From contig JBAZKL010000004.1 in the NCBI GenBank assembly GCA_041650835.1, positions 166,900-230,899 on the forward strand: 64,000 nt of DNA, in the 5' to 3' direction. The position numbers and the translations under genes were made by a program. Shown piece after piece: positions 1 through 26,707 of this stretch; position 1 is the stretch's first letter; each line of letters starts with the position of its first letter. The notes under the pieces were generated by a model. That model searched no databases. It worked only from the letters and a program-made list of their open reading frames with translations, and was not told where the DNA came from. The DNA comes from Candidatus Omnitrophota bacterium (GTDB lineage: Bacteria; Omnitrophota; Gorgyraeia; Gygaellales; Profunditerraquicolaceae).

Positions 1-346
1 GCCTAAAAGAAACAGCAAAAAAGACGCCGGCGCGTACATATACACATACCTGGATTCGCTTTTCTTCAAGCCGCCTCCAACGAACTTCCAGAGATGATAA
101 ATTACGAACGGGGAAGCAAGGAACAACCCTCCCCAGACGGACAGTTTAAGGTAAGCGATAAACGCTTCTGTCGGGTCTATGAAAACAAGCTTACCCACCG
201 GTTTTGCCAGGACGGTAAGTATAGCATCGCTGAAATGATATACAACGCAGGCTCCCAGGGCAACCGCGGCCAGCGATTTTATCAACCGGCCTCTGAGCTC
301 GTCTAAATGTTCGAAAAAAGTAAAGGTATCCATACCCCGGCGCATA

Positions 347-619
347 TCAGCCTTTCTTTTGCGCCCCGGCATCCGCCGCGGGCGGATTACTCGCTTCCGC
401 GCTCACTGCCGCCTGGGCGATAACCGCGACGGGTTTTACGCTCTCCTGCGCCGCGCTGACTTCAATGCCCTCCCGTATATCACTGGCCGCTTTCTTGAAT
501 TCTCCGATAGATTTCCCTAAAGCGCGCGCCATATCAGGCAGGCTTTTGGCGCCAAACAGCAAAAGAACCACCAAGAATACTACGATCAACTCCGGCATTC
601 CCATCCCGAACATAAGCAC
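347..619 (-). CDS. tatA: Sec-independent translocase TatA/E family protein
   Basis: N-terminal TM helix followed by amphipathic helix ([33 protein letters not shown]), classic TatA signature; true start probably an internal Met. Confidence 0.85.
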
Positions 620-633
620 CTCCTTTATACAAC

Positions 634-795
634 TTATTTCTTAGCTAATTCCGCCTTTTCCTCTTTACGCGAATTCTTGAACTCTTTTATCGACTCACCG
701 ATCGCCTTGGCTATCTCCGGCAGGCGTTTAGCGCCGAAAAGAAGCATCACAATGGCCAATATGACCAACAACTCACCGATCCCCAGTTTAAACAT
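634..795 (-). CDS. tatA: second small TatA-like protein (about 53 aa, below the ORF-track cutoff)
   Basis: Hand translation of the minus strand gives [53 protein letters not shown], the same TatA pattern as the neighbouring gene; GGAGG-like RBS upstream. Confidence 0.6.
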
Positions 796-819
796 ACACC
801 CTCCTTATTTTAACCTCTC

Positions 820-1287
820 TTAATGCTCGATAAATGACTCTTCTCTCAATACCTTCACCTCTTCTTTTACTATCCTGATAAGCTCAGGCATCACCGCGGA
901 AACCTCCGGCGATAGTTCCATACCCCAGGCTATCCTGGCAGGCTCCACCCCTATTACCGAAACATTCAGCGGCCCCTCTTTACAGGATAACGCAAGCAGG
1001 CTTGAAAGGTCAAAGCCGTGCATGGAAGCAATATAGTTTTTCTTCGCGCACTCATCCAAAGGCAGGCGGTATATCGACCCGGATCTGCCGCCGGCGATCA
1101 TCGCGTCCACGACGATGAGCCTGTCGGCCGCGGCAATATCCGGCAAGGCATCGAGTATCGCGGTTCCCGCGTCGAGTGCCGTTACGCCTTCCAGCCCGCC
1201 TTCGGCGATGAGGGCGTGGACAAGATGCACGCCCACGCCTTCATCCGCTAAAAGCAGGTTCCCTATTCCCAACACAAGGATACGCAT
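820..1287 (-). CDS. [NiFe] hydrogenase maturation endopeptidase (HyaD/HybD family)
   Basis: MRILVLGIGNLLLADEGVGVH...VVDA motif typical of hydrogenase C-terminal processing proteases; immediately downstream of large subunit; start moved to the Met with MRILVLG. Confidence 0.85.
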   Translation of the reverse strand: MRILVLGIGNLLLADEGVGVHLVHALIAEGGLEGVTALDAGTAILDALPDIAAADRLIVVDAMIAGGRSGSIYRLPLDECAKKNYIASMHGFDLSSLLALSCKEGPLNVSVIGVEPARIAWGMELSPEVSAVMPELIRIVKEEVKVLREESFIEH

Positions 1288-1308
1288 AGACTCAAGCTCC
1301 GGCATTGA

Positions 1309-2727
1309 TCAACCCAGCCTCGTACGCAGCGTCAACGGCTCTTTCCCCGGCCTCATGACATGCACCGCGCAGGATAAACACGGATCGAACGAATGGATCA
1401 CTCTGAGCACCTCGATCGGCTTTGTTTCGTCCCTGACCGGCGTACCGACAAGGGCTTTTTCTATCGGGCCCAATTGCCCTGCGGTGTCCCGAGGAGATGC
1501 GTTCCAACAGGTCGGAGTAATAATCTGATACTGCGATATCTTAGCGCCGGAGATCTTCACCCAATGGCCAAGAGCCCCCCGCGGCGCTTCAGTCAGTCCC
1601 ATTCCCTCTCCGGAAACAGGCATGGCTTTGTTATCATAAACCGGCTGTCCTACCTGTATCTGATTCAGCCAATCGGACATTGCCTGCGCGACCTTCAAAG
1701 TTTCCAGCGCCCTGGCGACGTGGCGGTCCATAACAGAGATACCCTGCTGATAATCGCCATTCACCCACATCCTGGCAAGCGGGCCGGCTTCACAGGGCTT
1801 GCCCTGGTACCGCGGGGCCTTCAGCCACGAATAAGCATTCCCCTTCGGGTTAACCGGCAGCGTCTGCCCGGATGACGGGGCGAGATTATTCGTTGAATCG
1901 TTGTACCAGGAATACGTCACCGATTCAGTGATATCGCTTATCGCGACATCCTGCGACGGGCCTGCCTGGCCGTTATCGGCGTATCCCATTTTCAAAAGCT
2001 TATCATTACCGTCCTGGTCCTGTTCGAATACGCCGTAAGCCAGAAGGTTGCCATAGCCGCGGCCGACCTGAAAATAATCGGAGTAAGCCCCGCCCACCGT
2101 CTGCACATCGGGTATATACGTACTCTGAATAAAATCAGTCAGCCAGGTAAGCTGAGCGCGAAAGTCGGATATTTTCGCGGCAGTCGGAGTATCGGTAAAA
2201 CCGCCTGAAATGATCGCATGCGACGAAGGGCTCCTTCCGCCGATAATAGCGCCCATTTCATGGGCCCGCCTCCTTGCTTCGATAGCAAGCGTGATATGAG
2301 CCAGTATCGCTTCCGATGAAGGCACCCTCATATCCACGTCCCACGCAGGCAGCCACGGCGCGGTTTGAGGGCCATGAAGATAATCGAGCGCTGCCAGGAG
2401 ATAAAAATGCAGAATATGAGACTGGATGTAATTAGCCCCCAGAAGCAGGTTACGCAGGATCCTGCCGTTGGCCGTCGGAGTTCTCGCGCCCGCGTTATCC
2501 AGCGCCATAGAAGCAGCCAAACCGTGGGATATCGGGCATACGCCGCAGATACGCTGGGTGATCGGCACCGCGTCCCATGGATCTCTGCCCGTCAGGATCG
2601 TTTCGATCCCGCGGAACAGGGTCCCGGTACAGCGCGCGTCGACGACGCTGCCTGCGTCTATAGTAACCTCAACGCCCAAATGCCCTTCAATCCTTGTAAC
2701 CGGATCAATGATTTTAATTGTTGCCAT
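1309..2727 (-). CDS. [NiFe] hydrogenase large (catalytic) subunit
   Basis: N-terminal RIEGH and CGVC motifs, C-terminal DPCLSCAVH nickel-binding motif followed by a cleavable extension; 472 aa. Confidence 0.95.
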   Translation of the reverse strand: MATIKIIDPVTRIEGHLGVEVTIDAGSVVDARCTGTLFRGIETILTGRDPWDAVPITQRICGVCPISHGLAASMALDNAGARTPTANGRILRNLLLGANYIQSHILHFYLLAALDYLHGPQTAPWLPAWDVDMRVPSSEAILAHITLAIEARRRAHEMGAIIGGRSPSSHAIISGGFTDTPTAAKISDFRAQLTWLTDFIQSTYIPDVQTVGGAYSDYFQVGRGYGNLLAYGVFEQDQDGNDKLLKMGYADNGQAGPSQDVAISDITESVTYSWYNDSTNNLAPSSGQTLPVNPKGNAYSWLKAPRYQGKPCEAGPLARMWVNGDYQQGISVMDRHVARALETLKVAQAMSDWLNQIQVGQPVYDNKAMPVSGEGMGLTEAPRGALGHWVKISGAKISQYQIITPTCWNASPRDTAGQLGPIEKALVGTPVRDETKPIEVLRVIHSFDPCLSCAVHVMRPGKEPLTLRTRLG

Positions 2728-2742
2728 GGTTTGCTCCTCCTT

Positions 2743-4884
2743 TTAACTATCTCTGGTCACATTTTTTGTAACGCTTATTCCATTTGATTCAGCGCGTATT
2801 GTCCTGAAATAACTCGTATGCTCCTTTTCGAAGCGCCAACTGCCGCGGCTCGATATTCTTACTGAACCGATCAACGAACCGTTATATAATCGCACGGTCG
2901 CGTTCGGCTGCCCTGTGCCTCTTACCAACAACTCCCTATCCTCATGATCGTATTCTGCCCGGGAAATAGTCAGGGTCCCCGCACCCGGCGCCGGTATCCC
3001 GGTAACATTTGCGGTAAGCGTTACCCCGTTACACACCGCTGAAATACTGGTAGGAACCGGAGAAGGGCTGGTTACACCCACGCTCCAATTGCCTGAGCTT
3101 GAGATCGTCGCTGAACCAAGCGTAGTCGCGCCTGAGCGCACACTTACATTCGCGCCCGCAGGGCCGCTGCCTGATACACTCAGCCGGTTCGTAGAAACGG
3201 TGTATGCCGCGCTTGAAACAGCAAATGCTGTCGAAGCCGGTATACCGGTAACATTTGCAGTAAGCGTTACCCCGTTACATACCGCTGAAATACTGGCAGG
3301 AACCGGAGAAGGGCTAGTTACACCCACGCTCCAATTGCCTAAGCTTGAGATCGTCGCTGAACCAAGCGTAGTCGCGCCTGAACGCACACTTACATTCGCG
3401 CCCGCAGGGCCGCTGCCCGATACACTCAGCCGGTTCGTAGAAACGGTGTATGCCGCGCTTGAAACAGCAAATGCTGTCGAAGCCGGTATACCGGTAACAT
3501 TTGCAGTAAGCGTTACCCCGTTACACACCGCTGAAACACCGGTAGGAACCGGCGAAGGGCTGGTTACCGTCAAAGACCAATTGCCTTCGGTTGAGATCGT
3601 TACCGCTCCCAGGAAAGTACTCCCCGCGTTCAGAGTGACGACATTTCCGGTAGGGCCGGTCCCTGACACAACGAGTTGATTACTGCCTGAGTTATATGCC
3701 GCGCCTGAAACAGCAAACTGCGCGGCCGCGGGAGCCCCTGAAACATTCGCGGTCACCTGAACAGCGTTGCTCAAAACTGTTACGCTCTCCGGCACGGAAG
3801 AAAGATCCGCTTTTGAGACCGTGTACGTACCGTCTCTTTTTATCATCGTCGCGGCCAAGAGAACGCCGGAGGCGCTTTTAACCGCTGCTTGAGCGCCGAT
3901 CTTGCCTGTGCCGTTCACCCTCAAAACAAGATTTGCCGCGTCCCAAATAGCGGAACTTACCGCGAGAGCTTTCTGCGTGGGAATACTCGAAGTCGTAGAA
4001 ACCTTGAATAACGGCGCCGCGGGAAACGACCTCTCAGTGCATCCGATACAAAGCGCATTGGCGTTCATGCAGTAATTAATATTGTTATTCCACTTGCGCA
4101 CCGGGCAATCCCCTTGCGTATGAGGCCCTCTGCAGCCCAATTCCTCTAAGCAAAGGCCCGCCACTCCATAGGTATTTGCTTCATCCCGTTCGCGCCGGGG
4201 ACAACGTTCATGGACATTATTATTTTCACCGCCGAAAAGAGCGGACGGCCTGCCGTTACTATCCAGCGCCGGAGTGACACCCGCTAAAAGTTGAGCTACA
4301 ACATAGACGATCCAATCCGGATGGACCGGGCATCCCGCTATATTAATAGTGGGCTTGCCTATTGCCGAACTAAAGCTGGCCACCTGCGTAGGATTAGGAG
4401 CTGCCGCGGCAACGCCGCCAAAGCTGGCGCACGTACCTACCGCTATATTAGCGATGGAATGGCTGGCGAGATCCCTGACAGCGGAAAGTGCCGTTACATC
4501 CGTACCATTTTCGTTCCAGAGCACACAGGCATTACCGTTAAAAGCACCGGGGATACCCCCCTCCACGATAAGAATATAACTACCGGCGGATATATCCCTG
4601 ATCGTTTGCACTGCCTGGTCGCCGGCAGCGCCCATAAGGTTGATATGGTAATCCAGGTTGATCACATTGATCAAAAGGTCAGCGATATCCTTGGGCGCCG
4701 AAGGCGAGATCAAATTAGCCAGCGACACAGAGCACCCGGTGCAGGATGAACCGGTCAACCAGAGGACCTGCGGCCCGGAATTCGCGAGCGCTTCTTTAAG
4801 CCTCGCCAGCCCACTGGCATCAAGCCCTAATACAGCTGCTGAAGCGATACAGTATTTCAAGAAATCCCGTCTACTTATCTTCAT
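2743..4884 (-). CDS. [NiFe] hydrogenase small subunit with Tat signal and long repetitive C-terminal extension
   Basis: Twin-arginine signal SRRDFLK, cysteine motifs of the small subunit in the first ~330 aa, then ~350 aa of S/T/V-rich Ig-like repeats (three near-identical ~80-aa units); 713 aa. Confidence 0.85.
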   Translation of the reverse strand: MKISRRDFLKYCIASAAVLGLDASGLARLKEALANSGPQVLWLTGSSCTGCSVSLANLISPSAPKDIADLLINVINLDYHINLMGAAGDQAVQTIRDISAGSYILIVEGGIPGAFNGNACVLWNENGTDVTALSAVRDLASHSIANIAVGTCASFGGVAAAAPNPTQVASFSSAIGKPTINIAGCPVHPDWIVYVVAQLLAGVTPALDSNGRPSALFGGENNNVHERCPRRERDEANTYGVAGLCLEELGCRGPHTQGDCPVRKWNNNINYCMNANALCIGCTERSFPAAPLFKVSTTSSIPTQKALAVSSAIWDAANLVLRVNGTGKIGAQAAVKSASGVLLAATMIKRDGTYTVSKADLSSVPESVTVLSNAVQVTANVSGAPAAAQFAVSGAAYNSGSNQLVVSGTGPTGNVVTLNAGSTFLGAVTISTEGNWSLTVTSPSPVPTGVSAVCNGVTLTANVTGIPASTAFAVSSAAYTVSTNRLSVSGSGPAGANVSVRSGATTLGSATISSLGNWSVGVTSPSPVPASISAVCNGVTLTANVTGIPASTAFAVSSAAYTVSTNRLSVSGSGPAGANVSVRSGATTLGSATISSSGNWSVGVTSPSPVPTSISAVCNGVTLTANVTGIPAPGAGTLTISRAEYDHEDRELLVRGTGQPNATVRLYNGSLIGSVRISSRGSWRFEKEHTSYFRTIRAESNGISVTKNVTRDS
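2990..3720. repeat. three near-identical ~240-bp tandem direct repeats inside the hydrogenase small-subunit gene
   Basis: ccggtaacatttgc...gaaacagcaaatgctgtcgaagccggtata unit recurs at about 3000, 3246 and 3491; mirrored as a repetitive plus-strand ORF 3089..3679. Confidence 0.9.
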
Positions 4885-4962
4885 ACCATTTTCCTCCTTT
4901 TGTCCAGATAGATACCACCCCGCGCGACGTACCCGAGCGGGACACGTTTACTTAAACGCCTC

Positions 4963-6708
4963 TCACCTTCTCAACGCCACCTCCTTGTTTTGTAATGCAG
5001 CGGCCTCATCCCTTGGCGCCGCGCGCACCTTTGTCACCCGGAAATTACCTATATACAGCACGTCGAGGTTTGACGAGTGAAAACAACGCAGCGCTTCTTG
5101 AGGCGTATTGACGATCGGTTCACCGTTCACGTTGAACGAAGTGTTTAAAAGCACCGGTACCCCGGTTATCTCCTTGAATTTTGAAAGCAATCGCCAATAC
5201 AACGGATTCTGCCCGAAGGAAACCGTTTGCACGCGGCAGGTCCCGTCGACATGCACGACCGCGGGGGCGTTGGTCCTGGCAATATCTTTAGCCTTTGCCA
5301 GAAAGAGCATCGAAGACATATCTATCCCTTCGGGAAATTCAAAATAATCTTTTGCCTCCTCAATGAGTACCGAAGGCGCGAAAGGCCGGAACGGCTCCCT
5401 GAATTTTATTTTTTCGTTTACCCTGCCGGCGACGCCGCTTTGACGGGGATCGGCTAAAATACTGCGGTTACCGAGTGACCGCGGCCCCCATTCCGCCCTT
5501 CCCTGGAACCACCCGGCCACTTTACCGCTGGCAAGGGCGTAGGCGCATTCACTGATCAAAACCGATTCATTAAGCTCCTGAAAATCAAAAATAAAAGGAT
5601 CGATGAGTTGCGCGATATTCCCGCAGGAGAACTCACTTCCGAGATACACCGGCGAAGAAGTATCGCGTTTACGCTTATTCCCTTTAAGGATCCTGTCGGA
5701 ATACCAACAGGCGCCTACCGCGGTCCCCGCGTCATGCGAAGCCGGATGAATATAAATATTTTTGAACAACCCTGCTTCAGCAAGCGCGGTATTACAATCG
5801 CAATTGAGGGCAAGGTCGCCCGAATAACATAACGTATCCAGATCGGTCAGTTTTTTAAGATGGCGCGCCAGGTGGATCAACGCCTGGCGCATCACCTGCT
5901 GGAGGGAAGAAGCGGTATCTTTATGTATTTTGTTGATCCCGCAGCGGGGATCCCGCGGAGCGCCGAAAGCGGCGATAAACTTGTCGGAGACCAGTGGCAC
6001 GCGATTTTCTGATCCGGGAAAGATAAAATATTCCGTATTTATTTCGATAGTGCCGTTATCTTTGAGCTTTACGATATCCCTCATCGTTTCAATGAACGAC
6101 GGCATCCCGTACGCGGCCAGCCCCATCACCCTGTATTCGTCGGATAACGGCCTGAAGCCGAGGTATCCGGTGACCGCGGCGTATACCATGGCAAGCGAAT
6201 CGGGATATCCCAGCGAAAAATAAGTGCGGCATTGTCGGGGAGTAATGTATCCTGCGGTTATTGGTTTACTTTCGCCGTAGTGGTCGACCGTCAAAAAAGC
6301 GGCGCTCTCACCCTCGCACAACGAGAACGCGCTTGCGGCGTGGGCGAGCTGATGCGGCACGCAGTCGATAGTAGCCTTGTTGGCGCTGCCGTCAAACAAC
6401 CGCGCGAACTGCGGCCAGGAGCGGCACTCTTTGCCGGTTGAGTATTCCAAAGAGGCGTCCTCCTGAAGGACTCTCGATAAACTTTTGCCGAAAGCGACAG
6501 TCGTAACTTCATCAAGACGGATACGGGCGTGCGATAAACAGAATTGAGCTGCCCTGAAGGGAAAACCGGAAGTGTTCTTGAGGCGGCTGAAGCGCTCTTC
6601 TTCCGCGGCAGCGACGATCGCGCCATCGATCATCAGCGCGGCAGCGGGGCTGCGCTGGAGCCCTGAAATTCCAAGTATGATCTCTCTTTTCATATGTTTG
6701 CTTATCAT
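4963..6708 (-). CDS. carbamoyltransferase, NodU/CmcH/TobZ family
   Basis: N-terminal ILGISGL...AAALMIDGAIVAAAEEERFSRLK Kae1-like carbamoyltransferase N domain plus C-terminal carbamoyltransferase domain; 581 aa. Confidence 0.8.
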   Translation of the reverse strand: MISKHMKREIILGISGLQRSPAAALMIDGAIVAAAEEERFSRLKNTSGFPFRAAQFCLSHARIRLDEVTTVAFGKSLSRVLQEDASLEYSTGKECRSWPQFARLFDGSANKATIDCVPHQLAHAASAFSLCEGESAAFLTVDHYGESKPITAGYITPRQCRTYFSLGYPDSLAMVYAAVTGYLGFRPLSDEYRVMGLAAYGMPSFIETMRDIVKLKDNGTIEINTEYFIFPGSENRVPLVSDKFIAAFGAPRDPRCGINKIHKDTASSLQQVMRQALIHLARHLKKLTDLDTLCYSGDLALNCDCNTALAEAGLFKNIYIHPASHDAGTAVGACWYSDRILKGNKRKRDTSSPVYLGSEFSCGNIAQLIDPFIFDFQELNESVLISECAYALASGKVAGWFQGRAEWGPRSLGNRSILADPRQSGVAGRVNEKIKFREPFRPFAPSVLIEEAKDYFEFPEGIDMSSMLFLAKAKDIARTNAPAVVHVDGTCRVQTVSFGQNPLYWRLLSKFKEITGVPVLLNTSFNVNGEPIVNTPQEALRCFHSSNLDVLYIGNFRVTKVRAAPRDEAAALQNKEVALRR

Positions 6709-6794
6709 GGTAAAAGCTTAGCAAAACAATGATAAAGAGAAGATTAAGATAAAATTAATTTTTCTTAATTCTTTCGGAGGTGGATTTAAGAGGC

Positions 6795-8276
6795 TTACAG
6801 GACAGGGAGGATCACCGTGAAAGTGGAGCCCTTGCCGACCGCGCTTCTTACTTCAATGCACCCCTGGTGCATTGAAGCGATGGATTGCGCGATACTCAGG
6901 CCAAGGCCGCTTCCGGGCTCATCATTGCGGTCCGCTGACTGCGCGCGGAAGAATTTATTGAATATTTTCGCGCGGTCTTCGTCGGTGATGCCGATGCCGG
7001 TATCGGTAATGGCGACAAATACCCGCTTATGCGCGCGCCTTACGGAAAAATTGATCGCGCCTCCCTGGAGAGTGAACTTAATGGCGTTATGAATGAGATT
7101 AAAGAACAACCTGCGTAAATATAACTGGTTCACCATAGTAATAAGCGGCTCTTTCGGCCCGGTGAAAGTGACGGTAATGTTTTTTTGCGAAGCCAGGATC
7201 ACGGTCTTTTCATAGATATCGTTCAGGAAGGGCGCAAGGTCCATGCGCTCAAAGGTAAAGGCTTCCTTACGGTACTTGATCTCGGTAAGCATAAGCATAT
7301 TATCTATGGTTTTCAACATCCTTTCGACCTCGTCAAGATTTGACTGCATGACCCGTCGGCAATCTTCGAGATTCTGCCCGCTCTGCAACGCGACCTCCGT
7401 TTCCCCCTTGATGATAGTAAGCGGCGTGCGCAGGTCATGCGCGACAGAGGAGCTGAACTCTGAAACATACTTGAATGATTCCTCCAGGCGCGCGATCATA
7501 TCGTTAAAAGATTCGGCAAGATATTTCATTTCTTCATCGAGATGCTCCACCTTGACCCTATGGCTTAAGTTTTCATACGAGATGGTTTTCGCGGTACGCG
7601 CGACCTGCTGCACCGGGCCCAGGATACGCCAGACTAATAAATAACTGATAATGATGGCGATCACCAGGATCGCCAGGATGCTTAATGCCGTTGAAACGAT
7701 CCGCTTACGCAGGACCTGAACCACCGGGATCGCGAAAGTCCCTACCTCTATAATATAGCGGCCGAAATTATTAAACGCTACCGGCATCACGACCAACCGT
7801 AAAGTCACCCCTCCCTGGTAATTGACATTGCCGAAGGTCACCTTTTCCTGCTTTATGTTCACGTATTTCTCAAATAAGAGGCGCAGATCCCGGTCGATAT
7901 TCGAAGAACTGACTATCGTTTTCCCGTCAAAGCTCAAGAAATTAATGTAATCATCGTCGAGCTCCAATGAGGCCTTATCCTTAAGCCATTGCGCCTGGGC
8001 ATCCGCGGCCTTCTCCTGCCCCGGGTATTCGCCTTCCCCTCGGATAACGCTCCTGGCCGCGAAATTCAGGGCCTTTTTATCATCGCCCAGGGCAGCAAGA
8101 TGCGAGCGTATCGCGTCCCGGACATGGGTAGCTTTAATGATCAGCTGTTCATCTGAATCTTTATTCAAGGCGCGATAGAAATTGAAATAAAGGAGCCCCC
8201 GGTAGGCGACTAAGATCAATCCTAATATCCCCACGTACAACACGCAAATCTTGAATTTAACGGAATTGATCATCAT
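6795..8276 (-). CDS. sensor histidine kinase (two TM, HAMP, HisKA, HATPase_c)
   Basis: H-box SVAHDLRTPLT, N/G1/G2 boxes (IHNAIKFT, DTGIGI, GSGLGLSIA); 4-bp overlap with upstream response regulator. Confidence 0.9.
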   Translation of the reverse strand: MMINSVKFKICVLYVGILGLILVAYRGLLYFNFYRALNKDSDEQLIIKATHVRDAIRSHLAALGDDKKALNFAARSVIRGEGEYPGQEKAADAQAQWLKDKASLELDDDYINFLSFDGKTIVSSSNIDRDLRLLFEKYVNIKQEKVTFGNVNYQGGVTLRLVVMPVAFNNFGRYIIEVGTFAIPVVQVLRKRIVSTALSILAILVIAIIISYLLVWRILGPVQQVARTAKTISYENLSHRVKVEHLDEEMKYLAESFNDMIARLEESFKYVSEFSSSVAHDLRTPLTIIKGETEVALQSGQNLEDCRRVMQSNLDEVERMLKTIDNMLMLTEIKYRKEAFTFERMDLAPFLNDIYEKTVILASQKNITVTFTGPKEPLITMVNQLYLRRLFFNLIHNAIKFTLQGGAINFSVRRAHKRVFVAITDTGIGITDEDRAKIFNKFFRAQSADRNDEPGSGLGLSIAQSIASMHQGCIEVRSAVGKGSTFTVILPVL

Positions 8277-8950
8277 TTGATTTCGCTCTTGAGCATATAG
8301 CCTACGCCGCGCAAGGTATGAATGAGCTGCTTTTTAGCGTCCTTGTCGACCTTGTTGCGCAGGTTATTAATAAAAACATCGATAATATTCGAAAAACTGT
8401 CGAAATTCTCGTTCCAGACATGCTCGGAGATCATGGTCCGGGTGACGACCTGGTTCACGTTGAGCATGAGGTATTCAAGAAGCGCGTACTCTTTCGGGGT
8501 CAAGGTTATTTCTTTGCTGCCTCTGGCGACCTTATGCGAAAGCTGGTCCAGTTCAAGGTCGGCTACTATAAGGGAAAGATTTTTATCGGCCCTCTTCCGG
8601 CGCAATAATGCCGCGACCCGGGCAAGGAACTCTTCGAACGAAAAAGGCTTTACCAGGTAATCATCGGCGCCTGCCCCCAGGCCAAACACCTTATCCGTGA
8701 CCGTCCCTTTGGCGGTAAGCATAAGGATAGGGGTGTCGATCGCGTTTTCCCTTAATTCTTTGCATATGGTTATGCCGTCTTTTTTAGGCAGCATGATATC
8801 CATGATGATCAAGTCATAGGGATTGATCTGCGCGAGCTCCTCCGCCTTTTCTCCGTCAGAGGCGACATCGACGGCATAGCGGTGCGCCTTAAGGCCCCGC
8901 TCGATAAAACTAGCGATCTTTTTTTCATCTTCAACCAGTAAAATTCTCAT
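8273..8950 (-). CDS. OmpR-family response regulator (REC + winged helix)
   Basis: MRILLVEDE...DLIIMDIMLPKKDG receiver motifs; C-terminal trans_reg_C-like LTPKEYALLEYL...RGVGY. Confidence 0.9.
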   Translation of the reverse strand: MRILLVEDEKKIASFIERGLKAHRYAVDVASDGEKAEELAQINPYDLIIMDIMLPKKDGITICKELRENAIDTPILMLTAKGTVTDKVFGLGAGADDYLVKPFSFEEFLARVAALLRRKRADKNLSLIVADLELDQLSHKVARGSKEITLTPKEYALLEYLMLNVNQVVTRTMISEHVWNENFDSFSNIIDVFINNLRNKVDKDAKKQLIHTLRGVGYMLKSEIK

Positions 8951-9033
8951 ACGATCATTTTAACCGTATTTTATAAACAGGCGTTGACTGAAACACACTT
9001 TTTTCCAACCTTTCTCCACTTAAAGCGCGGAAA

Positions 9034-9073
9034 ACCAAAAAAAGGCGGCTGTCACGCGATTTGTGACGCCACC
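9034..9073 (-). terminator. rho-independent terminator of the beta-lactamase gene
   Basis: minus-strand hairpin ggcgtcacaaatcgcgtgacagccgcc followed by a T7 run, 75 bp downstream of the stop. Confidence 0.7.
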
Positions 9074-9146
9074 TTTCTCATTATTTCTATCTTTTCAATT
9101 TCTTTTATTATTTTCCTGCCGGTGAGGCAGGGCCTTTAACCTTAAC

Positions 9147-9929
9147 CTACAATACCTCCAGAGATCTGAAAAACTTTTCTACGATCACCCGGGCGGCTTT
9201 ACCTGAAGGATTTTCCCCTCCGGTAATATTGCAGGCGAATACATATGTCTGCCCGCCGTGCTCAAGAAAACCCACAAACCATCCCCAGGCCTCCCCGCTC
9301 ATGTTTTTGCCTGAGCCTGTCTTACCATAAAGCGTTCCTTTTTCAGTCTCCACTGATCTCATAACATCTTTAAGTATCGTAACGTTCTTTTGGGAGAACG
9401 GCAGCTTTCCGTCAAAAAGTTTATTCAAGAGATCCACCTGCTCCTGCGCGCTGATCATGATAGGAGAGCCTTCATCCGGGTTAAGCCAGAAAACGTCAAT
9501 CCCCGCAGAGATATTCTTAGTCCCGTAATCGATCTCTTCAACGTAATTCTTCATCCGTTCAAACCCAACCTGGCGCGCCAAGATCTGATAAGCGGGCACT
9601 GCCGATACGCGAAAGGCCTCCCGCAGCGTCAAATCCTGGTTCCAGCCATCTATTGAACGCTTAATACCATCCCATTTATACCATAGTTCATCTACCTCCG
9701 GGATCAAACCAAGTTCTAATCCGATCAGGGTATTATAGATCTTAAAAGTTGAACACGGAGATAAACGCCGCGCGCCGAGCGCGGGGTCGGCATTGATGAC
9801 CGCGCCTGTTGAACGGTTATAAATAACGAGCGCGGTATTATGTTTCTTCAATAAAGATTTGTCGATCTCATAGGCGTTAGCAAATGCGGGGATCAGAAGA
9901 AAGTAAAGAAAAAATATGGCATGTTTCAC
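9147..9929 (-). CDS. class D (OXA-like) beta-lactamase / BlaR1-sensor-like penicillin-binding domain protein
   Basis: Signal peptide; active-site S-T-F-K (SPCSTFKIYN), SAV (SxV) and KTG (YGKTGSG) motifs in class D spacing; 260 aa. Confidence 0.8.
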   Translation of the reverse strand: MKHAIFFLYFLLIPAFANAYEIDKSLLKKHNTALVIYNRSTGAVINADPALGARRLSPCSTFKIYNTLIGLELGLIPEVDELWYKWDGIKRSIDGWNQDLTLREAFRVSAVPAYQILARQVGFERMKNYVEEIDYGTKNISAGIDVFWLNPDEGSPIMISAQEQVDLLNKLFDGKLPFSQKNVTILKDVMRSVETEKGTLYGKTGSGKNMSGEAWGWFVGFLEHGGQTYVFACNITGGENPSGKAARVIVEKFFRSLEVL

Positions 9930-9978
9930 GATCGAACTCCTTTCACCCTCGCTTACTCCGGCCCCGACTGAAGTTATT

Positions 9979-10440
9979 TCAGGTGAGCGCCTGCGATTCT
10001 TTTATTTTTAACCAGGCTTCTTTGATCAAGCCGCTTTTAGATTCAAAATCTTTATCTGATTCCGTATTGATCCATACAGTAACCAGCGCGCCCGCTGTTT
10101 CGGCTATCTTCTTTTGGAGATACTCTTCTTCTGAACCCGCTGAGGCCTGAGCTTCTATTTCTTTTAACAGCTTGATCCTCATCTTAATATCTTTGTTTGA
10201 AAGGCCGTTACGGTTGTTTAAATCCTGATATTCCAGATAATACGGGTTGCCCGTTCCGCCTTTTTTGATCTCAATATAACAGTCACGGCCGGCATGTTCC
10301 AAGGCATTAACGATCAAGCCCGCGACATCGTCATCCAGGCCGGTATTATTCTTGATATAAAGGAGCATATCTTTTTTAGACTTAAATCGCGCCTCATTGC
10401 TATCGCGCGCCTGTCGTCTAAAGAAATTCCCGATGCCCAT
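9979..10440 (-). CDS. hypothetical protein
   Basis: 153-aa ORF, no recognisable motif. Confidence 0.5.
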   Translation of the reverse strand: MGIGNFFRRQARDSNEARFKSKKDMLLYIKNNTGLDDDVAGLIVNALEHAGRDCYIEIKKGGTGNPYYLEYQDLNNRNGLSNKDIKMRIKLLKEIEAQASAGSEEEYLQKKIAETAGALVTVWINTESDKDFESKSGLIKEAWLKIKESQALT

Positions 10441-18840: not shown

Positions 18841-18910
18841 AGCGACTTGCCGATTTTATTCCTAATTTCTTTGTTTAGAGTGAGTTATTGAGTTATGACA
18901 CCAATTATTT
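18841..18910 (+). repeat. family A element, right half only (copy 5)
   Basis: cgacttgccgattttattcctaatttctttgtttagagtgagttattgagttatgacaccaatt. Confidence 0.7.
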
Positions 18911-19140
18911 CGCAAGAAACAGACATAACCGTTTATTTTGCTCATCCTCGTTCTCCATGGGAGCGAGGTACAAATGAAAACACCAATGCTTTAATACGCC
19001 AGTATTTCCCCAAAACTACTGATTTTTCAAAAATCTCGAAAAATAGACTTAAAGAGGTACAGGACGAATTAAACGATCGTCCGCGCAAAACTCTTGGATG
19101 GTATACACCTCACGAAAAATTTACTGAACTGTTGCGTTAG
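18895..19140 (+). pseudogene. IS30-family transposase C-terminal fragment with right inverted repeat (gttgcgttagcaac at about 19130..19150)
   Basis: 81 aa nearly identical to the C-terminus of the intact IS30 transposase at 29671..30666 (ITVYFAHP.SPWERGTNENTN...DRPRKTLGW.TPHE.F.ELLR). Confidence 0.85.
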
Positions 19141-19342: not shown

Positions 19343-22015
19343 TTACGGTTCCAGCTGCTTTTTGCGTTGCTTTCTTGTTTGATCACGACGACCAATAAGC
19401 TGCCTTGAAAAGTCCCTCAAGGAGCTTATATCAGCGAGCACTTCATCAGGTGCAGGACGATCACAATGCAAAGCCTTGGATTTGTCATGACCTGTCATCC
19501 AAGTACTAGCCTTAGATATATGAAGATCAACGCAATGAATATCAGAATCTTCAATAGCCACTCCATTGAGTCTGAGGGTCTGCACGCTGTTTCTGTATCG
19601 ACAAACTACCTTATCGAACAAATCATCCTCAATACAAGATTCCCAAGCTTCACGCAATAATCCGTAAACATAAGCCGCTTCTTTGTTGTACTCTACCATA
19701 TCTTGCTGATAAAAAGATTTAATCTTATTAACCAAATCTTCCAGGTATTGCGCCCGCTGTCCAACCTTCATGGCATGCCAAGGTACACTATTAATTGTAA
19801 TGCCCGCTGACTTTCCGTCACGGCGCAAAGTATGTACGGTGATACTAACTGGCGTACCGGCCTTGGCAAGCGCCATTCCGGCATCCTCCAATTCCATCAG
19901 GAAAGCTATGTTATGAGTAAATATAATGACCTGTCGTTTAAGCCCCTCTTTCGCGAGCCGTTCAGCAATCTTTCCAGTGAATATATGATCGAGCGATGAA
20001 ACTGGATCATCCAACACGATCGCGTTAACATGTGGGACAAGTTGAAGCTCAGCCAGAAAACCAGCAATTGCGATAACTCGTGCCTCACCTTCACTGAGAA
20101 TCTGAGAGATGCGTACCCGGCCTGATATATTAACGCCTTCCAACAAAATCTCGTGTGTAGTCTCCCCTACATCTCCACAAGGCTTAACCGATATAGACAA
20201 ACGATTCGCACCTAACGCAATAAGTTCCTTCTTAAAAGCACTTATCAACTCCGGAGTTAAGTTCTTCTTAATCACCACTGTGCCTTGCCGTGTAATTTCA
20301 TAAGTACTAAGGGTATCAGCCGCTCGCCGCAAATCGGCATTACGCCGAATCTTAGCAACAAGCGCGTAAATATCGACTTTCCTAGCGTTGAGCGCCTTCC
20401 GCGATTTAAGTTCTGTTATGCTGGCGATAAGCTTCTTATATTCCTCAGGCTTAGCCGCATTCGTAATTTCAGTAGCCTTTTGGGTTAATGTTTTGGCAAC
20501 CGATCGTAATGCTGCTTCTACAGATGCTGGCCATGGTGGCAATAATTTCGACCTTTGCGGATCTTCACCTTCTTTGAGTAAAACGAGTGCTGCAGATTTT
20601 CGCACGGCAATCGCTGTGTGATAGGTTCGCAAATCACTTGCCATCGGGACACCCAAACTACTAAGCTCATCACAAATCGAGTCAAGTGTTGCGGCAGTCA
20701 AAGGAGTCACAGCCTCTATCTTTTCCCTCAGCAACTTCAGCGCATTGCGCTTTGTAACTAACACAGTGTTTGTAGCATCTTCCATAAACTTCTTAAAACG
20801 GGCAAAACGGGCAACAGCCTCTTCACCTAGTGGTTGCTGGCAAAAAACACAGACCGCATCATCTGTTTTCGGAAAGGCCTGACCGGGGTAAGCTATCTCC
20901 TCAGAGTATTTCTTTGCTGCCTTATAGAGGATCTCCCATTGATCGGTGGAAGCAACACCTGGTAGCGTTTCGAACGTCTGCCGTTCAGCCACGGCAGCCG
21001 CACGTGCAAGCTGCGCAGCATTCACCTCTAATATAGCGTTCTGGATACCGTCATTCGTCAAATCAACGCACGCAGCTATGAGCTTTGTCACCGCACTTGC
21101 AGCATCGTTAATTCGCCCTTTAATTTTTTCGAGTCGGGCTACCTCTTGAGTTGCTTTCGTGGAATCTGATGTCCTCGCGAGCTCTTCTTGAGCAATCAAT
21201 TGTAACTCATCTTGCGGAGTCCAATTCGTCGCAGCTTGAATAACCTCTTCTTTGGTAGTCTCTAACAAAGACTCGAGAAATTTAGCTGCTGCGGTACCCG
21301 CCGCAATAGCTGAATCCTGAATCGGCATGATAGCCATTATCTCCGTTTCCACGTCTCCCCTAACTCTTTGGACGATCTCCGCCAGCTTCTGAAACACATC
21401 GCAACCATAGGGCAGATAGTTAATCTGATTTCGATCATCAGTAATGATTCGAGCGCAGCGTCCGTCAAATACTGTGATATTGGTCAAAACAGGGTCGACA
21501 GAAACACCTTGAGTCCAAGCAACATCCCTTGACTTATTATCCTGTTTAATCTTTATTATGGCGGTTGGCGCACCAGATGGTGCCTTAACGAAGACATTAG
21601 AAAGGATACGCTCATCCTTATCGCGGGCTTGGCACGCCAGTTTCAAGATTCGGGAATAACCAGACTTACCAGCGCCATTGTCACCATACACCACTGTAAC
21701 ACCACTCTCAGCGAAAGGCTGTGACGCGCCAGCCTTGATGATGTTGACATTTCTAACGTCATCAATTGATAGTAGTTTAACAGCAACTGTTGTTGTGGGA
21801 ACACCCGAGAAGTTACCCGCAACCGGGAGAATAGGCTTGAGTTTTTCGGGAAACGCTGCAATTTTTAAATCTGCTTTGGCCAAAGCCAATATCTCAGAAT
21901 AATCTTGAGCATTGAGCGGCTGGTCACCCTTAGTCAACAGACGACGAACAACGTCTCCTTGCCACGCAGGTAAAGAACTGGCCCATACAATAATATCGTC
22001 AATAGTAGCCATCAA
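19343..22015 (-). CDS. Rad50/SbcC/RecN-like ABC ATPase with long coiled-coil insert and ~75-aa N-terminal extension
   Basis: Walker A VVYGDNGAGKSGYSRIL, about 500 aa coiled coil, C-terminal signature/Walker B/H-loop (SEGEARVIAIA...IVLDDPVSSLD...IIFTHN); 890 aa. Confidence 0.8.
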   Translation of the reverse strand: MMATIDDIIVWASSLPAWQGDVVRRLLTKGDQPLNAQDYSEILALAKADLKIAAFPEKLKPILPVAGNFSGVPTTTVAVKLLSIDDVRNVNIIKAGASQPFAESGVTVVYGDNGAGKSGYSRILKLACQARDKDERILSNVFVKAPSGAPTAIIKIKQDNKSRDVAWTQGVSVDPVLTNITVFDGRCARIITDDRNQINYLPYGCDVFQKLAEIVQRVRGDVETEIMAIMPIQDSAIAAGTAAAKFLESLLETTKEEVIQAATNWTPQDELQLIAQEELARTSDSTKATQEVARLEKIKGRINDAASAVTKLIAACVDLTNDGIQNAILEVNAAQLARAAAVAERQTFETLPGVASTDQWEILYKAAKKYSEEIAYPGQAFPKTDDAVCVFCQQPLGEEAVARFARFKKFMEDATNTVLVTKRNALKLLREKIEAVTPLTAATLDSICDELSSLGVPMASDLRTYHTAIAVRKSAALVLLKEGEDPQRSKLLPPWPASVEAALRSVAKTLTQKATEITNAAKPEEYKKLIASITELKSRKALNARKVDIYALVAKIRRNADLRRAADTLSTYEITRQGTVVIKKNLTPELISAFKKELIALGANRLSISVKPCGDVGETTHEILLEGVNISGRVRISQILSEGEARVIAIAGFLAELQLVPHVNAIVLDDPVSSLDHIFTGKIAERLAKEGLKRQVIIFTHNIAFLMELEDAGMALAKAGTPVSITVHTLRRDGKSAGITINSVPWHAMKVGQRAQYLEDLVNKIKSFYQQDMVEYNKEAAYVYGLLREAWESCIEDDLFDKVVCRYRNSVQTLRLNGVAIEDSDIHCVDLHISKASTWMTGHDKSKALHCDRPAPDEVLADISSLRDFSRQLIGRRDQTRKQRKKQLEP

Positions 22016-22047
22016 TTACTCTCCAGGGTACCTGTCTACTGTAAAAT

Positions 22048-23580
22048 TCAGACTATTGGTCTATCCACTCCATCATCTTCCGATACATCAATAGGCAGTA
22101 AGGCGGTAGCCTCACCTACGGGAAGCTCCTGCACATCCTTGAGTTTTCTCCCGATGCCCCTTGACCTAACTTTAGCTTGTTCAATTGTGTCTGATGCTTG
22201 ATGTAACTTATTTTGCACTGCATCCAAAACATCGCCATACTTCGTCCACTCGGTTTTGACTGCAGCAAGAAGATTCCAGACCTCACTAGAACGCTTCTGG
22301 ATAGCAAGCGTTCGAAAACCCATCTGAAGACTGTTTAAAATAGACCATAGGGTAGTCGGACCAGCGATAACCACACGGCATTCCCGTTGGATAACCTCGA
22401 TCAAGCCCGTCCTACGAATGACTTCAGCAAAGAGACCCTCTATAGGTAAAAACAGAATACCGAAGTCCGTGGTTTTTGGCGGATTTAAATATTTTTTAGA
22501 GATGTCAGATGCACAAATCTTGACACGATTCTCCAACTGTTTACTCGCCGCTTCAACTCCTTCAATATCTGCTCTTTCTTGAGCCTCAATCAAACGCTGA
22601 TAGTCTTCAACAGGAAACTTAGCGTCAACCGGGAGCCAGACAACATCATCCTTATCAGTGCCTTTTCCCGGCAGTTTGATCGCAAACTCAACACGCTCGC
22701 CTCCCTCTTTCGTAGCCACGTTGATGCCAAACTGATCAGGATTGAGCACCTGCTCTAACAACGCCCCAAGTTGCACTTCACCCCACGTCCCACGTGTTTT
22801 GACATTTGTAAGTACCTTTTTAAGATCACCAACACCCGTAGCAAGCGTTTGCATCTCCCCAAGTCCTTTATGCACCATCTCCAGACGTTCACTGACTTGC
22901 TTAAAGGATTCACCCAAGCGCCTTTCCAATGTCCCCTGGAGTTTCTCGTCCACGGTCTGGCGCATTTGTTCAAGCTGCTTGGCGTTATCAATCTGCATGC
23001 TTTGAAGTTTACTTTCCACCGCGACCCTGACTGACTCCAGTTTTTTCTCATTTGAATCCGAAAGTCTACCAATCGCGGTTGACATAATTTCAAGTTGGGT
23101 TTTCTGAAGATTGGCCAATTCGCCCATTGTTTTAGTGGTGGCTTCCGTAATCCCCTTAAGAGTTGCAATAACCTCTTCCCTTAACTGTTTAGCTCCAGTG
23201 GCAGACTCGGCACGAACACCATCCAAGCGTTCACCGCTAGCCTTGGCGAAAGAAGCAAGTTGATTAGAAAAAACATCGAGTTGCCCCTTCTGCATATTGG
23301 CTATATCCATCATTCGTTGTACCACCGAATCGCCAAAGACTTTAAATGCTTCGGCGAGCTCCTGTCTTTGTTCTCTTGTCGTCTTACCCATTTCGTCTCT
23401 GCTCTGAGCCACTTCTTCTCTAACCGCATGCTCAGTACGTTCTTGTGCCTTTTCCAAAACATCAAGACGAGAGGCAATCAAAGAAGGATCAGTTTGGTAT
23501 AGTTTCTTTGAGATAACAAGCAAAACAGCTACCACGCCAACCAGCAAAACAAGAATCACAAATAACAGTATATTAATCAC
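22048..23580 (-). CDS. rmuC: DNA recombination protein RmuC family (TM anchor, coiled coil, RmuC nuclease-like domain)
   Basis: N-terminal TM, extensive coiled coil, C-terminal TTDFGILFLPIEGLFAEV...VIAGPTTLWSIL characteristic of RmuC. Confidence 0.8.
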   Translation of the reverse strand: MINILLFVILVLLVGVVAVLLVISKKLYQTDPSLIASRLDVLEKAQERTEHAVREEVAQSRDEMGKTTREQRQELAEAFKVFGDSVVQRMMDIANMQKGQLDVFSNQLASFAKASGERLDGVRAESATGAKQLREEVIATLKGITEATTKTMGELANLQKTQLEIMSTAIGRLSDSNEKKLESVRVAVESKLQSMQIDNAKQLEQMRQTVDEKLQGTLERRLGESFKQVSERLEMVHKGLGEMQTLATGVGDLKKVLTNVKTRGTWGEVQLGALLEQVLNPDQFGINVATKEGGERVEFAIKLPGKGTDKDDVVWLPVDAKFPVEDYQRLIEAQERADIEGVEAASKQLENRVKICASDISKKYLNPPKTTDFGILFLPIEGLFAEVIRRTGLIEVIQRECRVVIAGPTTLWSILNSLQMGFRTLAIQKRSSEVWNLLAAVKTEWTKYGDVLDAVQNKLHQASDTIEQAKVRSRGIGRKLKDVQELPVGEATALLPIDVSEDDGVDRPIV

Positions 23581-23618
23581 AAAAACCTCCTTAAAAATCC
23601 CTTAAACTCATAAAATTT

Positions 23619-23837
23619 TTATACTTTTAATAATAATCTAATCGTTTGCAATAAATTTCTGTTCAATTCCTGCTGATTTATTCCTACCATTACCTTGATT
23701 GCTCTTCGCAGATTGATTGTCATTGCTCTAATCGACCTACCTTGCTCTACCTTGGTCAACTCGCGAAAAGTTTTACGGTTTCCTTGATGTGCTTTAATTG
23801 TCTTTCCACACTTTGGGCATTTATTATATTGTATCAT
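23619..23837 (-). CDS. transposase-like zinc-ribbon/HTH fragment (possible IS remnant)
   Basis: CPKCGKTIKAHQGNRKTF zinc ribbon; preceded by the same ~115-bp family B element that precedes the IS30 transposase gene. Confidence 0.35.
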   Translation of the reverse strand: MIQYNKCPKCGKTIKAHQGNRKTFRELTKVEQGRSIRAMTINLRRAIKVMVGINQQELNRNLLQTIRLLLKV

Positions 23838-23937
23838 CGTATTTCCTTTCTTTAGTACTCACCTTCAGTCATCTGCCAGCCATAGCGCTTAAACAATTGC
23901 TCTGTTTTTGCCTAGTCATTCTCATTCAAATTTCATA

Positions 23938-24049
23938 GACGCTGTATCCAACCTACTATAATCCTTACACTTACAAAACAATTACTTCCGCCCAGCACAA
24001 AAGGATTGTTTTGCAACTCAAAGAAGCATTATCGGTTACGTATAGCGTC
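23938..24049 (+). repeat. family B ~115-bp inverted-repeat element copy 1 (terminal IR gacgctgtat / tatagcgtc; internal ATCCAAC and ttacaaaacaatt/aattgttttgcaa)
   Basis: near-identical copy at 30727..30837. Confidence 0.8.
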
Positions 24050-24162
24050 TAGGATTCCCCTTGCCATTTGCCTACCTCCCTCATCTGAATAGAATAGTAA
24101 ATCCCAACCGCCATCCATAATAAAATCCCGAAAGCTTTAAGATTCCATATATGTTTAACAAA

Positions 24163-25710: not shown

Positions 25711-25735
25711 TATTTTTCTCCATACTTAACAAATA

Positions 25736-25859
25736 GCAAGACGTTTTATCCAACATCATAATTATCAACGCGTTACAAAACAATTTCTTAATCTTATCTG
25801 TCTTCAGCATTTGTTATGCAACTTAATAACGAAGAAATAGTTAGACAAAACGTCTTATT
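25736..25859 (+). repeat. family C ~120-bp inverted-repeat element copy 1 with integron-core-like ends (ATCCAAC ... GTTAGAC)
   Basis: caagacgttttATCCAACat...ttacaaaacaatt...aataGTTAGACaaaacgtcttatt; terminal IR aagacgtttt/aaaacgtctt. Confidence 0.8.
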
Positions 25860-25885
25860 AATATCGTTTTTGTCATAATTTCCAT

Positions 25886-26356
25886 TTATCCGTTCAAGTC
25901 GGGAACAGTATACTCGATAAGTCTATCCTCAAGATTTCTTCTCTCCACATCCGAGAGATTACTGGTCTGGCAAAACCATAATTTTATTCTTTTGCGTTTG
26001 TAATGATTAAGAACAAATTTGTTTATTTTGCAGTTAGTAGATTGACCCCTTACAAAACAATTACGAGGACTTATTAGCCCGTAACCACTATTTATACGAT
26101 TATACAAATCCTGGCATTCTCCAACATAGCGGATTTTGTTATTTAGTGTAAAAAAATAGAGTCCACTTCTCCCACTCCACTTCGGGAGAATCTTGAATCC
26201 ACAAAATCCACCTTTCCCATATCTGTGTAAAGCATACCCTTTCTTGTTATCATATCGGCTTTGCGGATAACTAATGATTACGGTACCATTCTTACTGCGC
26301 ATTAACTCTATCTTACAAACCTCGAGAAAAACAAAACCTAAAATCTTCTTAATCAT
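25886..26356 (-). CDS. GIY-YIG nuclease-domain protein
   Basis: GLYFFTLNNKIRYVGECQDLYNRIN (GIY...YVG...R...N) and downstream conserved Glu (RRNLEDRLIE). Confidence 0.65.
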   Translation of the reverse strand: MIKKILGFVFLEVCKIELMRSKNGTVIISYPQSRYDNKKGYALHRYGKGGFCGFKILPKWSGRSGLYFFTLNNKIRYVGECQDLYNRINSGYGLISPRNCFVRGQSTNCKINKFVLNHYKRKRIKLWFCQTSNLSDVERRNLEDRLIEYTVPDLNG

Positions 26357-26419
26357 TTCTTAAGTAATATTCCAAAGTTCTTTTATTCTATTTACTATAT
26401 GCTGCCATTTTTTTGAATA

Positions 26420-26515: not shown

Positions 26516-26524
26516 AATATAGGA

Positions 26525-26650: not shown

Positions 26651-26707
26651 TAATTCTAAAGAGATAAACCATCTTACATCGGCACGTATTGGCCAATACT
26701 TAAAACC

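Follow-up and report, generated by a model that had tools for sequence, protein, structure and literature searches.

A tandem array of immunoglobulin-like domains at the C-terminus of a [NiFe] hydrogenase small subunit from Candidatus Omnitrophota

The window analysed here is a 64-kb stretch of DNA (contig JBAZKL010000004.1, positions 166,900 to 230,899) from a metagenome-assembled genome (MAG) of a Candidatus Omnitrophota bacterium. Its minus strand carries a [NiFe] hydrogenase operon in which the small subunit is followed by the large subunit, the maturation protease, two genes of the tatA family and, cut off by the window start, the 5' part of tatC. The 713-residue small subunit is identical to NCBI entry MFA5118989.1 ('MAG: hydrogenase small subunit [Candidatus Omnitrophota bacterium]'), which is encoded on a 365,851-bp contig. 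Its C-terminal extension comprises 418 residues and is built from five immunoglobulin (Ig)-like domains of 82 residues that belong to the Pfam family Big_6. The features of the operon are the following.

2743..4884 (-), [NiFe] hydrogenase small subunit, 713 residues, with twin-arginine translocation (Tat) signal; Pfam and NCBIfam matches
4783..4884 (-), Tat signal peptide, approximately residues 1–34; putative cleavage after EALA
4000..4782 (-), small-subunit core, residues 35–295; Oxidored_q6 and NiFe_hyd_SSU_C
3727..3975 (-), Ig-like domain 1, residues 304–386; proximal domain with the motif GTGKIG(A/S)QA, its position conserved across the Omnitrophota clade
3481..3726 (-), Ig-like domain 2, residues 387–468; the 71% identical DNA unit, without Lys or Arg
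3235..3480 (-), Ig-like domain 3, residues 469–550; one of the two 97% identical DNA units
2989..3234 (-), Ig-like domain 4, residues 551–632; the other 97% identical unit
2746..2988 (-), Ig-like domain 5, residues 633–713; terminal basic module with 12 Lys and Arg residues and a pI of 9.8
2990..3727, tandem DNA repeat with three units and a period of 246 bp, detected by Tandem Repeats Finder (TRF) and by a gap-free repeat finder
1309..2727 (-), [NiFe] hydrogenase large subunit, 472 residues; motifs RIEGH, RICGVC and C-terminal DPCLSCAVH
820..1305 (-), hydrogenase maturation endopeptidase of the HycI/HybD family; Pfam HycI, E = 1.6e-18
634..795 (-), TatA/E-family gene, 53 residues; Pfam and NCBIfam
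347..619 (-), second TatA/B-family gene, 90 residues; Pfam and NCBIfam
1..372 (-), 5' part of tatC, which continues beyond the window start; the sister contig L081 holds a full-length TatC of 243 residues

The coordinates and the Pfam and NCBIfam matches confirm the gene order of the original prediction, which had been read from the sequence alone and had listed the small subunit, the large subunit, the protease and two tatA genes; the 5' part of tatC is additional. A small subunit with a Tat signal had also been proposed correctly, as the twin-arginine motif and the small-subunit domain matches demonstrate. This motif, SRRDFLKY (residues 4–11), aligns to the signal peptide of HysB. The match to the Pfam model TAT_signal is weak (17.5 bits, cut-off 22.7); the motif itself is plain in the sequence. 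The small-subunit core matches Oxidored_q6 (E = 5.8e-25) and NiFe_hyd_SSU_C (E = 9.7e-19), both above the cut-offs, and the model TIGR00391 (hydA, hydrogenase small subunit) with 204 bits (cut-off 179.5). The large subunit matches NiFeSe_Hases (Pfam, E = 8.7e-118) and has a tail of 16 residues after DPCLSCAVH for proteolytic maturation.

The ligands of the iron-sulfur clusters were assigned by alignment to the structure 2WPN and from established knowledge. Cys47, Cys50 and Cys151, with the invariant Cys119, correspond to the proximal cluster and His224, Cys227, Cys244 and Cys250 to the distal cluster. The medial cluster is assigned to Cys259, Cys271, Cys278 and Cys281, of which Cys271 aligns with the extra cysteine of 2WPN_A. 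All cluster-ligand Cys and His residues are invariant across the family alignment. Because four cysteines are present at the medial cluster, the small subunit is expected to hold three [4Fe-4S] clusters, as in NiFeSe enzymes.

The best relatives in the Protein Data Bank (PDB) are two periplasmic [NiFeSe] hydrogenases, from Desulfovibrio vulgaris Hildenborough (2WPN) and Desulfomicrobium baculatum (1CC1), with best E values of 7e-60 for the small subunit (2WPN_A) and 9e-132 for the large subunit (5JSU_B). Standard [NiFe] enzymes score far lower. The position occupied by selenocysteine in [NiFeSe] enzymes is encoded by a Cys codon in the window, and the DPCLSCAVH motif has no in-frame TGA; a true [NiFeSe] hydrogenase is thereby ruled out. 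The NCBIfam models for NiFeSe enzymes remain below their cut-offs (597 against 600; NF045518, 542 against 780; NF045520, 248 against 470). Thus, the protein is a Cys-type [NiFe] enzyme and not a member of the [NiFeSe] family proper. All features of a group 1 small subunit are present: the Tat motif, the ligands of three clusters and the adjacent large subunit with its protease. It is near certain that the operon encodes an uptake-type [NiFe] hydrogenase that is exported to the periplasm by Tat and belongs to the [NiFeSe]-type lineage of Desulfovibrio and Desulfomicrobium (HydDB 'group 1a'-like).

The extension matches Big_6 (PF17936) in three stretches with 81.3 bits (cut-off 27.6, E = 6e-23), and a hidden Markov model of the repeat finds five domains in the small subunit. 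AlphaFold2 (AF2) prediction on the family alignment yields five seven-stranded β-sandwiches with pLDDT values of 80–88. The full-length model was used only to count the domains of the extension, as its pTM is 0.36 and the relative orientations of the domains are unreliable. The catalytic core is poorly modelled in it because the alignment held only 11 sequences. When the terminal domain was modelled alone with 36 repeat sequences, the pLDDT rose to 90.2, and seven or eight strands were obtained. A Foldseek search of the PDB with this model retrieved Ig-like domains of CE20 acetylesterases, SiiE, MpIBP, Bap and an S-layer protein, with TM-scores of 0.58–0.67 and E values that were all at least 2.5e-3. 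The predicted fold of the terminal domain is that of a generic bacterial Ig domain and gives no functional clue. The Big_6 match, the predicted β-sandwiches and the Foldseek matches agree with the Big-like domains that had been proposed at first; the proposed length of 350 residues was too small.

No transmembrane (TM) segment is present in residues 290–713 (maximum Kyte-Doolittle value over 19 residues, 1.19). The extension also has no recognisable sorting motif, i.e. no outer-membrane secretion signal, sortase signal or PEP-CTERM, and the C-termini are short and polar. No cofactor-binding motif was found in the Ig domains. The linkers between the domains are short and contain proline (…TGIPA…). 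A search of 1.84 billion cluster representatives with a profile of the terminal domain returned 3,673 proteins, mostly giant, adhesin-like multi-repeat proteins. Full-length matches to the terminal module also end secreted subtilases and a PKD/MopE protein; none of the ten proteins scanned was another redox enzyme with this module. The module is thus widespread as an accessory or stalk domain of extracytoplasmic proteins. Big_6 is listed among the domains that build the stalks of fibrillar adhesins, and a 'Periscope protein' of Staphylococcus aureus that varies in length is made of Big_6 repeats (PMC8286594, PMC8201768).

The terminal domain is basic in 14 of the 14 family members (9–18 Lys and Arg residues, net charge +3 to +10, pI 9.6–11.8). 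In most members an internal domain has 0–5 Lys and Arg residues, with as many as 10 in P0006 and P0009. The catalytic core is acidic. The basic domain is the last one in every family member. In versions with a single domain, a linker rich in Pro, Glu and Ser connects it to the core. The invariant positions of the terminal domain are residues of the fold core (Leu, Ala, Leu, Gly, Gly, Val and Trp), and the family alignment contains no specific conserved surface residues in this domain. Hence charge, rather than a specific patch, is conserved on its surface.

The distribution of the extension was derived from 169 complete small-subunit genes, which were collected by genome and metagenome contig scans and by look-ups. 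Fewer than 40 residues follow the core in 134 of these; the remainder have a TM helix (7), a multihaem domain (6), another soluble extension (9) or Big_6-like domains (13). Six of the 13 Big_6-like genes come from deliberately fetched loci. In the unbiased set of 160 loci, a Big_6-like extension is present in seven (~4%). The alignment-based scan of genome contigs kept 80 loci and did not include the source MAG; a scan with the single protein confirmed no relative, and a look-up of contigs recorded as encoding the protein of the window gave none. A protein search with the extension alone found one protein (P0034, from L081), with the candidate list saturated by low-complexity words, and an exact 26-mer scan of metagenome contigs gave no match. 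The numbers of repeats are as follows.

1 repeat: P0010, P0011, P0012, P0013, P0022 and Desulforhopalus L004
2 repeats: P0009 and L089
3 repeats: P0005 and P0007
4 repeats: P0003, P0004, P0006, P0008, Acidobacteriota L001 and the sister strain L081
5 repeats: the protein of the window and P0002

A neighbour-joining tree of the cores places the multi-repeat proteins of the Omnitrophota type in one clade, in which members with three, four and five repeats are interspersed. The architecture with the basic terminal domain recurs in Omnitrophota, Acidobacteriota and Desulfobacterota.

Small subunits of sister clades carry other domains at the same place. Multihaem CxxCH domains resembling cytochrome c3 are fused to P0023 (L088), P0028 and P0030, and an unrelated pair of Ig-type domains (ASH/HYDIN-like, PF15780/PF22544) is present in P0016, P0017, P0020, P0024 and L003. 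Domain fusion thus has a hot spot at the small-subunit C-terminus. L006 and L035 from delta-proteobacterial MAGs appeared as small subunits of ~900 residues in the tblastn table. Actually, each locus (L006, 9998–12779; L035, ~4700–7469) contains two tandem small-subunit genes followed by one large subunit. The second small-subunit gene has a single Big_6-like domain in both cases, and the first gene of L006 (362 residues) has none.

At the DNA level, TRF reports a period of 246 bp with 3.0 copies at 2990–3717 (score 775–1079). The gap-free repeat finder divides the region into the units 2990–3235, 3236–3481 (97% identity) and 3482–3727 (71%). Adjacent units share 97% identity in one pair and 71% in the next, and the remaining pairs are much less similar. 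The two near-identical units differ in 8–9 of 246 nucleotides, depending on the unit boundaries. With the TRF boundaries there are eight differences, six of them synonymous by hand count and two causing amino-acid changes. If the domains are aligned by codons, one base over, nine differences are obtained, of which seven are synonymous and two are not. The original prediction of three near-identical repeats is therefore right as to the three 246-bp DNA units, whereas near-identity holds for only two of them and the protein has five modules, not three.

The sister contig L081 (JGI 3300037810) is 93% identical to positions 1–4587 of the window and extends past the window start. It encodes an intact small subunit whose gene is shorter by exactly one 246-bp unit, which results in four domains compared to five in the window (both from short-read assemblies). 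A single unit is present in L081 where the window has domains 3 and 4. The synonymous divergence (dS) between domains 3 and 4 is 0.11, and dS between the two strains is 0.17–0.37. At nine of the nine sites that distinguish domains 3 and 4, L081 matches one copy or the other. The low dS of this pair and the states of L081 at the nine sites fit a duplication that would postdate the split from L081, judged from these two sequences. Concerted evolution, or a collapse in L081, may account for the pattern instead. With five and four domains in 93% identical contigs and one to five across the family, the copy-number variation between close relatives that had been anticipated is indeed observed. For this genome, five is the probable number of domains.

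The ratio of nonsynonymous to synonymous divergence (dN/dS) between the window and L081 is 0.06 in both cores, 0.10–0.21 in each Ig domain and 0.17 in the extension as a whole. Values of 0.10–0.21 imply purifying selection on every Ig domain. There is thus good support for the array being functional and under selection as part of the protein.

No cytochrome b gene is present in the 64-kb window, in which a single CxxCH motif occurs in only one open reading frame (ORF). Beyond the window edge, L081 encodes TatC (243 residues), a C-terminal-only HypF (387 residues), HypC, HypD, HypE and HypA, but no cytochrome b; a cytochrome b gene just past the edge is ruled out by this contig. No cytochrome gene was found near the operon in the five related loci L082–L086, nor was a conserved candidate partner gene in the six neighbourhoods L081–L086. 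The operons of the relatives from Desulfobacterota and Acidobacteriota consist of just small subunit, large subunit and protease, and the loci inspected have no cytochrome b or c gene. The absence of a membrane cytochrome b gene, as claimed originally, is thus borne out for the window, for L081 and for L082–L086. The claim that the Ig domains serve rather than a cytochrome b sets up a false contrast. Absence of cytochrome b is ordinary, because this lineage normally has none. The unusual feature is the Ig extension and not the missing cytochrome b.

Three further genes are located upstream of the small subunit on the minus strand.

4963..6708 (-), NodU/CmcH-type carbamoyltransferase (Carbam_trans_N/C), directly upstream of the small subunit
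6795..8276 (-), sensor kinase with HAMP and HisKA domains, upstream of the hydrogenase cluster
8273..8950 (-), OmpR-type response regulator, upstream of the hydrogenase cluster

The carbamoyltransferase is also found next to the small subunit in L084 (8218–9960) and L086 (5149–6875) and may be linked to hydrogenase maturation. In L081, the HypF encoded after tatC is only a truncated one (HypF_C domains; 4776–5939). The two proteins might represent a split or alternative route of carbamoyl donation for the CN ligands of the active site. In L082 (Omnitrophica MAG GCA_015233115.1), two other genes at 7147–9980 adjoin the Ig-bearing small subunit upstream, in the place of the carbamoyltransferase: a HypC–radical SAM fusion (448 residues) and a radical SAM/BATS protein (495 residues) whose domain set is similar to that of HydE/HydG. 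For a [NiFe] hydrogenase, such a set of maturation genes is unusual. The pair of kinase and response regulator is kept upstream of the operon in L082 and L084; L086 has the response regulator only and L087 a similar pair farther upstream. The pair is probably a dedicated regulator of the hydrogenase operon.

The hydrogenase-tat block and the carbamoyltransferase (1–6708) have a GC content of 53–54% compared to 43.8% in the rest of the window (9000–64000). The operon is also richer in GC than its flanks by 3–7 points in L082 and L084–L086. A horizontally moved cassette is possible, as is a composition effect of proteins rich in Ala, Gly, Ser, Thr and Val. Farther along the window, the minus strand at 19343–33609 carries large ORFs of 890, 510, 515 and 893 residues and an ORF of 154 residues that is TIR-like by eye. 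Transposase- or integrase-like fragments interrupt this run at 18895–19140 and 29671–30666. The region looks like a mobile or defence island.

The catalytic machinery of the enzyme is ordinary and closely resembles HysAB of D. vulgaris Hildenborough (2WPN/5JSH) and the Dm. baculatum enzyme (1CC1/4KL8) of HydDB group 1a. Shared features are the small subunit with Tat signal, the short large subunit (~470–500 residues), the four-cysteine medial cluster, the C-terminal proteolytic maturation and an operon without cytochrome b. In contrast to HysAB, the Omnitrophota enzyme has Cys instead of selenocysteine in the DPCxxCxxH motif, and its large subunit has no N-terminal lipobox. The Hildenborough enzyme is reportedly lipid-anchored through its large subunit. 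No solved enzyme has the 418-residue Ig array. Hyd-1 of Escherichia coli (HyaABC, 4GD3) and the membrane-bound hydrogenase of Ralstonia eutropha have homologous cores (E ~1e-37) and a localisation element at the C-terminus of the small subunit, adjoining the distal cluster. This element is a TM helix, and a cytochrome b is present as well; the Omnitrophota operon encodes neither, and its small subunit carries soluble Ig domains instead of a hydrophobic anchor.

The small subunits with other add-ons belong to the same clade and share the fusion point and the minimal operon of small subunit, large subunit and protease. Their cores are ~60% (P0016, P0017, P0020 and P0023) or 40–44% (P0028 and P0030) identical, but the appended domain family is different. 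The haem fusions supply an obvious electron acceptor, whereas the Ig array does not. Outside the hydrogenases, Periscope proteins and fibrillar adhesins such as S. aureus SAP077A_019 (PMC8201768, PMC8286594) also have tandem Big_6 domains, repeat numbers that vary between close strains and distinct end modules. High DNA identity of adjacent units may be a further parallel, as it applies to one pair in the window. They differ in that the head of the Omnitrophota protein is a redox enzyme, is probably located in a diderm periplasm and has no wall-anchor motif. Furthermore, the Omnitrophota array comprises only 1–5 repeats with one highly identical pair.

The best reading of the architecture is a tether, namely a periscope-like stalk of variable length that ends in a cationic anchor domain. 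The cationic terminal domain would stick electrostatically to a polyanionic component of the envelope, i.e. to phospholipid head groups, to the inner face of the outer membrane bearing lipopolysaccharide (LPS) or to the cell wall. The first, proximal and the last, distal domain are constant throughout the clade; the uncharged domains between them would act as extenders, which recombination between near-identical 246-bp repeats would add or remove. In this way the stalk could hold the enzyme at a set but evolvable distance of up to ~15–20 nm from the surface and localise it as other group 1 hydrogenases are localised by a TM helix at the C-terminus or by a lipid anchor. Electrons would leave the distal [4Fe-4S] cluster via a periplasmic carrier, which should be diffusible or separately encoded because the operon encodes none. 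This combination of electrostatic anchor, uncharged extenders and carrier encoded elsewhere is tentative, and we rate its chance as slightly short of even. While the identity of the enzyme is near certain, the anchoring is the weak step. Several points weigh against it. The basic domain could equally dock on an acidic protein partner or on the acidic hydrogenase itself. As 134 of the 169 relatives have no extension at all, tethering is not required by this type of enzyme, and the unrelated Ig-type or multihaem add-ons in sister clades suggest that this position may just be permissive for fusions. A stalk of ~20 nm would keep the distal cluster far from an acceptor in the membrane, and the rod-like geometry is assumed by analogy with adhesins. 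Finally, the difference between five and four domains could be an assembly collapse in L081.

Instead of a tether, the terminal Ig domain may be part of a docking scaffold that binds a redox partner encoded elsewhere, for example an acidic cytochrome of the periplasm, a quinone-reductase complex in the membrane or a conduit through the outer membrane, and the stalk would keep the hydrogenase near that partner. In group 1 enzymes, the C-terminus of the small subunit adjoins the distal cluster, where acceptors dock (Hyd-1 with cytochrome b, hydrogenase with c3). The operon has no acceptor gene, and the multihaem domains fused at the same position in P0023, P0028 and P0030 indicate that the site is used for electron-acceptor modules. 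However, the Ig domains have no cofactor-binding motif, only charge and no individual surface residue is conserved on the terminal domain, and the six neighbourhoods share no candidate partner. A variable number of spacers would also be odd for a fixed protein-protein complex. Docking, including the role of the stalk in it, is unlikely in our view but deserves to be taken seriously. The extension may also have no localisation role, being an aid to folding, solubility or export or merely neutral baggage. It could make the small subunit more stable, influence Tat proofreading or be retained only because fusions are tolerated at this end. The many different add-ons at this site, the lack of any in most relatives and the more relaxed selection on the extension than on the core (dN/dS 0.17 compared to 0.06) are consistent with this. 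Yet purifying selection on every domain is clear, and the architecture with its basic terminal domain has been kept across three phyla. Large folded additions at the C-terminus hinder Tat export rather than help it. We judge a mere aid or baggage to be distinctly unlikely.

The stalk might also extend past the cell envelope and bring the enzyme or its basic tip close to a mineral, a host cell or a syntrophic partner. Surface adhesins typically contain Big_6 repeats, and the best matches of the terminal-domain profile are giant multi-repeat proteins. Omnitrophota are reported to be ultra-small with host-dependent traits (PMC10066038), which would suit such a display. L085 has a secretin gene after its hyp genes, but this neighbour is not conserved in L081–L084 and L086. 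In a diderm, Tat delivers proteins only to the periplasm, and putative lpxA-, lpxC- and lpxD-like genes at 60–63 kb, recognised by reading the ORFs of the window, are at odds with surface exposure. So are the short, polar C-termini and the lack of an outer-membrane secretion, sortase or PEP-CTERM signal. Surface display is accordingly very improbable. The least probable explanation is that the array or its copy number is an assembly artefact, which we would hardly expect. The 97% identity of two units and the assembly of a close relative with one unit fewer would fit it. On the other hand, the 8–9 differences between the near-identical units are less than 150 nucleotides apart and mostly synonymous, so that short reads can phase the two units. 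The ORF is intact, and independent assemblies from many samples give in-frame arrays of one to five units. Doubt is confined to the exact number, which is five or possibly more.

The electrostatic tether can be extended to a 'periscope hydrogenase': a rigid stalk of evolvable length whose cationic tip would be fixed to one layer of the envelope and whose length would set the position of the H2-oxidising head. This extension is speculative and, on present evidence, improbable. If true, the head could sit at the outer membrane, where it might capture H2 entering from a syntrophic partner or host or pass electrons to a conduit in this membrane, and changes in copy number would retune its position between strains. 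It would be a new way to organise periplasmic redox enzymes in space without membrane subunits.

The nearness of soluble periplasmic hydrogenases to their acceptors is usually ascribed to TM helices, lipid anchors or cytochrome partners. Full-text searches of the literature found no description of an Ig-stalked hydrogenase, and the public record reads 'hydrogenase small subunit' only. Two surveys of Omnitrophota (PMC10066038, PMC8542988) report other hydrogenase types and do not mention this one. The hydrogenase, the protease and the Tat and Hyp genes together form a compact cassette. To our knowledge, the phylum has no cultured members, and the role of its H2 metabolism is debated. For hydrogenase specialists, a recurrent Ig stalk of variable length with a cationic tip is surprising and testable, with the function of the stalk itself being our proposal. 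Recurrence of the stalk in three phyla, together with purifying selection, suggests that a redox enzyme can be positioned by yet another means, one that is genetically tunable.

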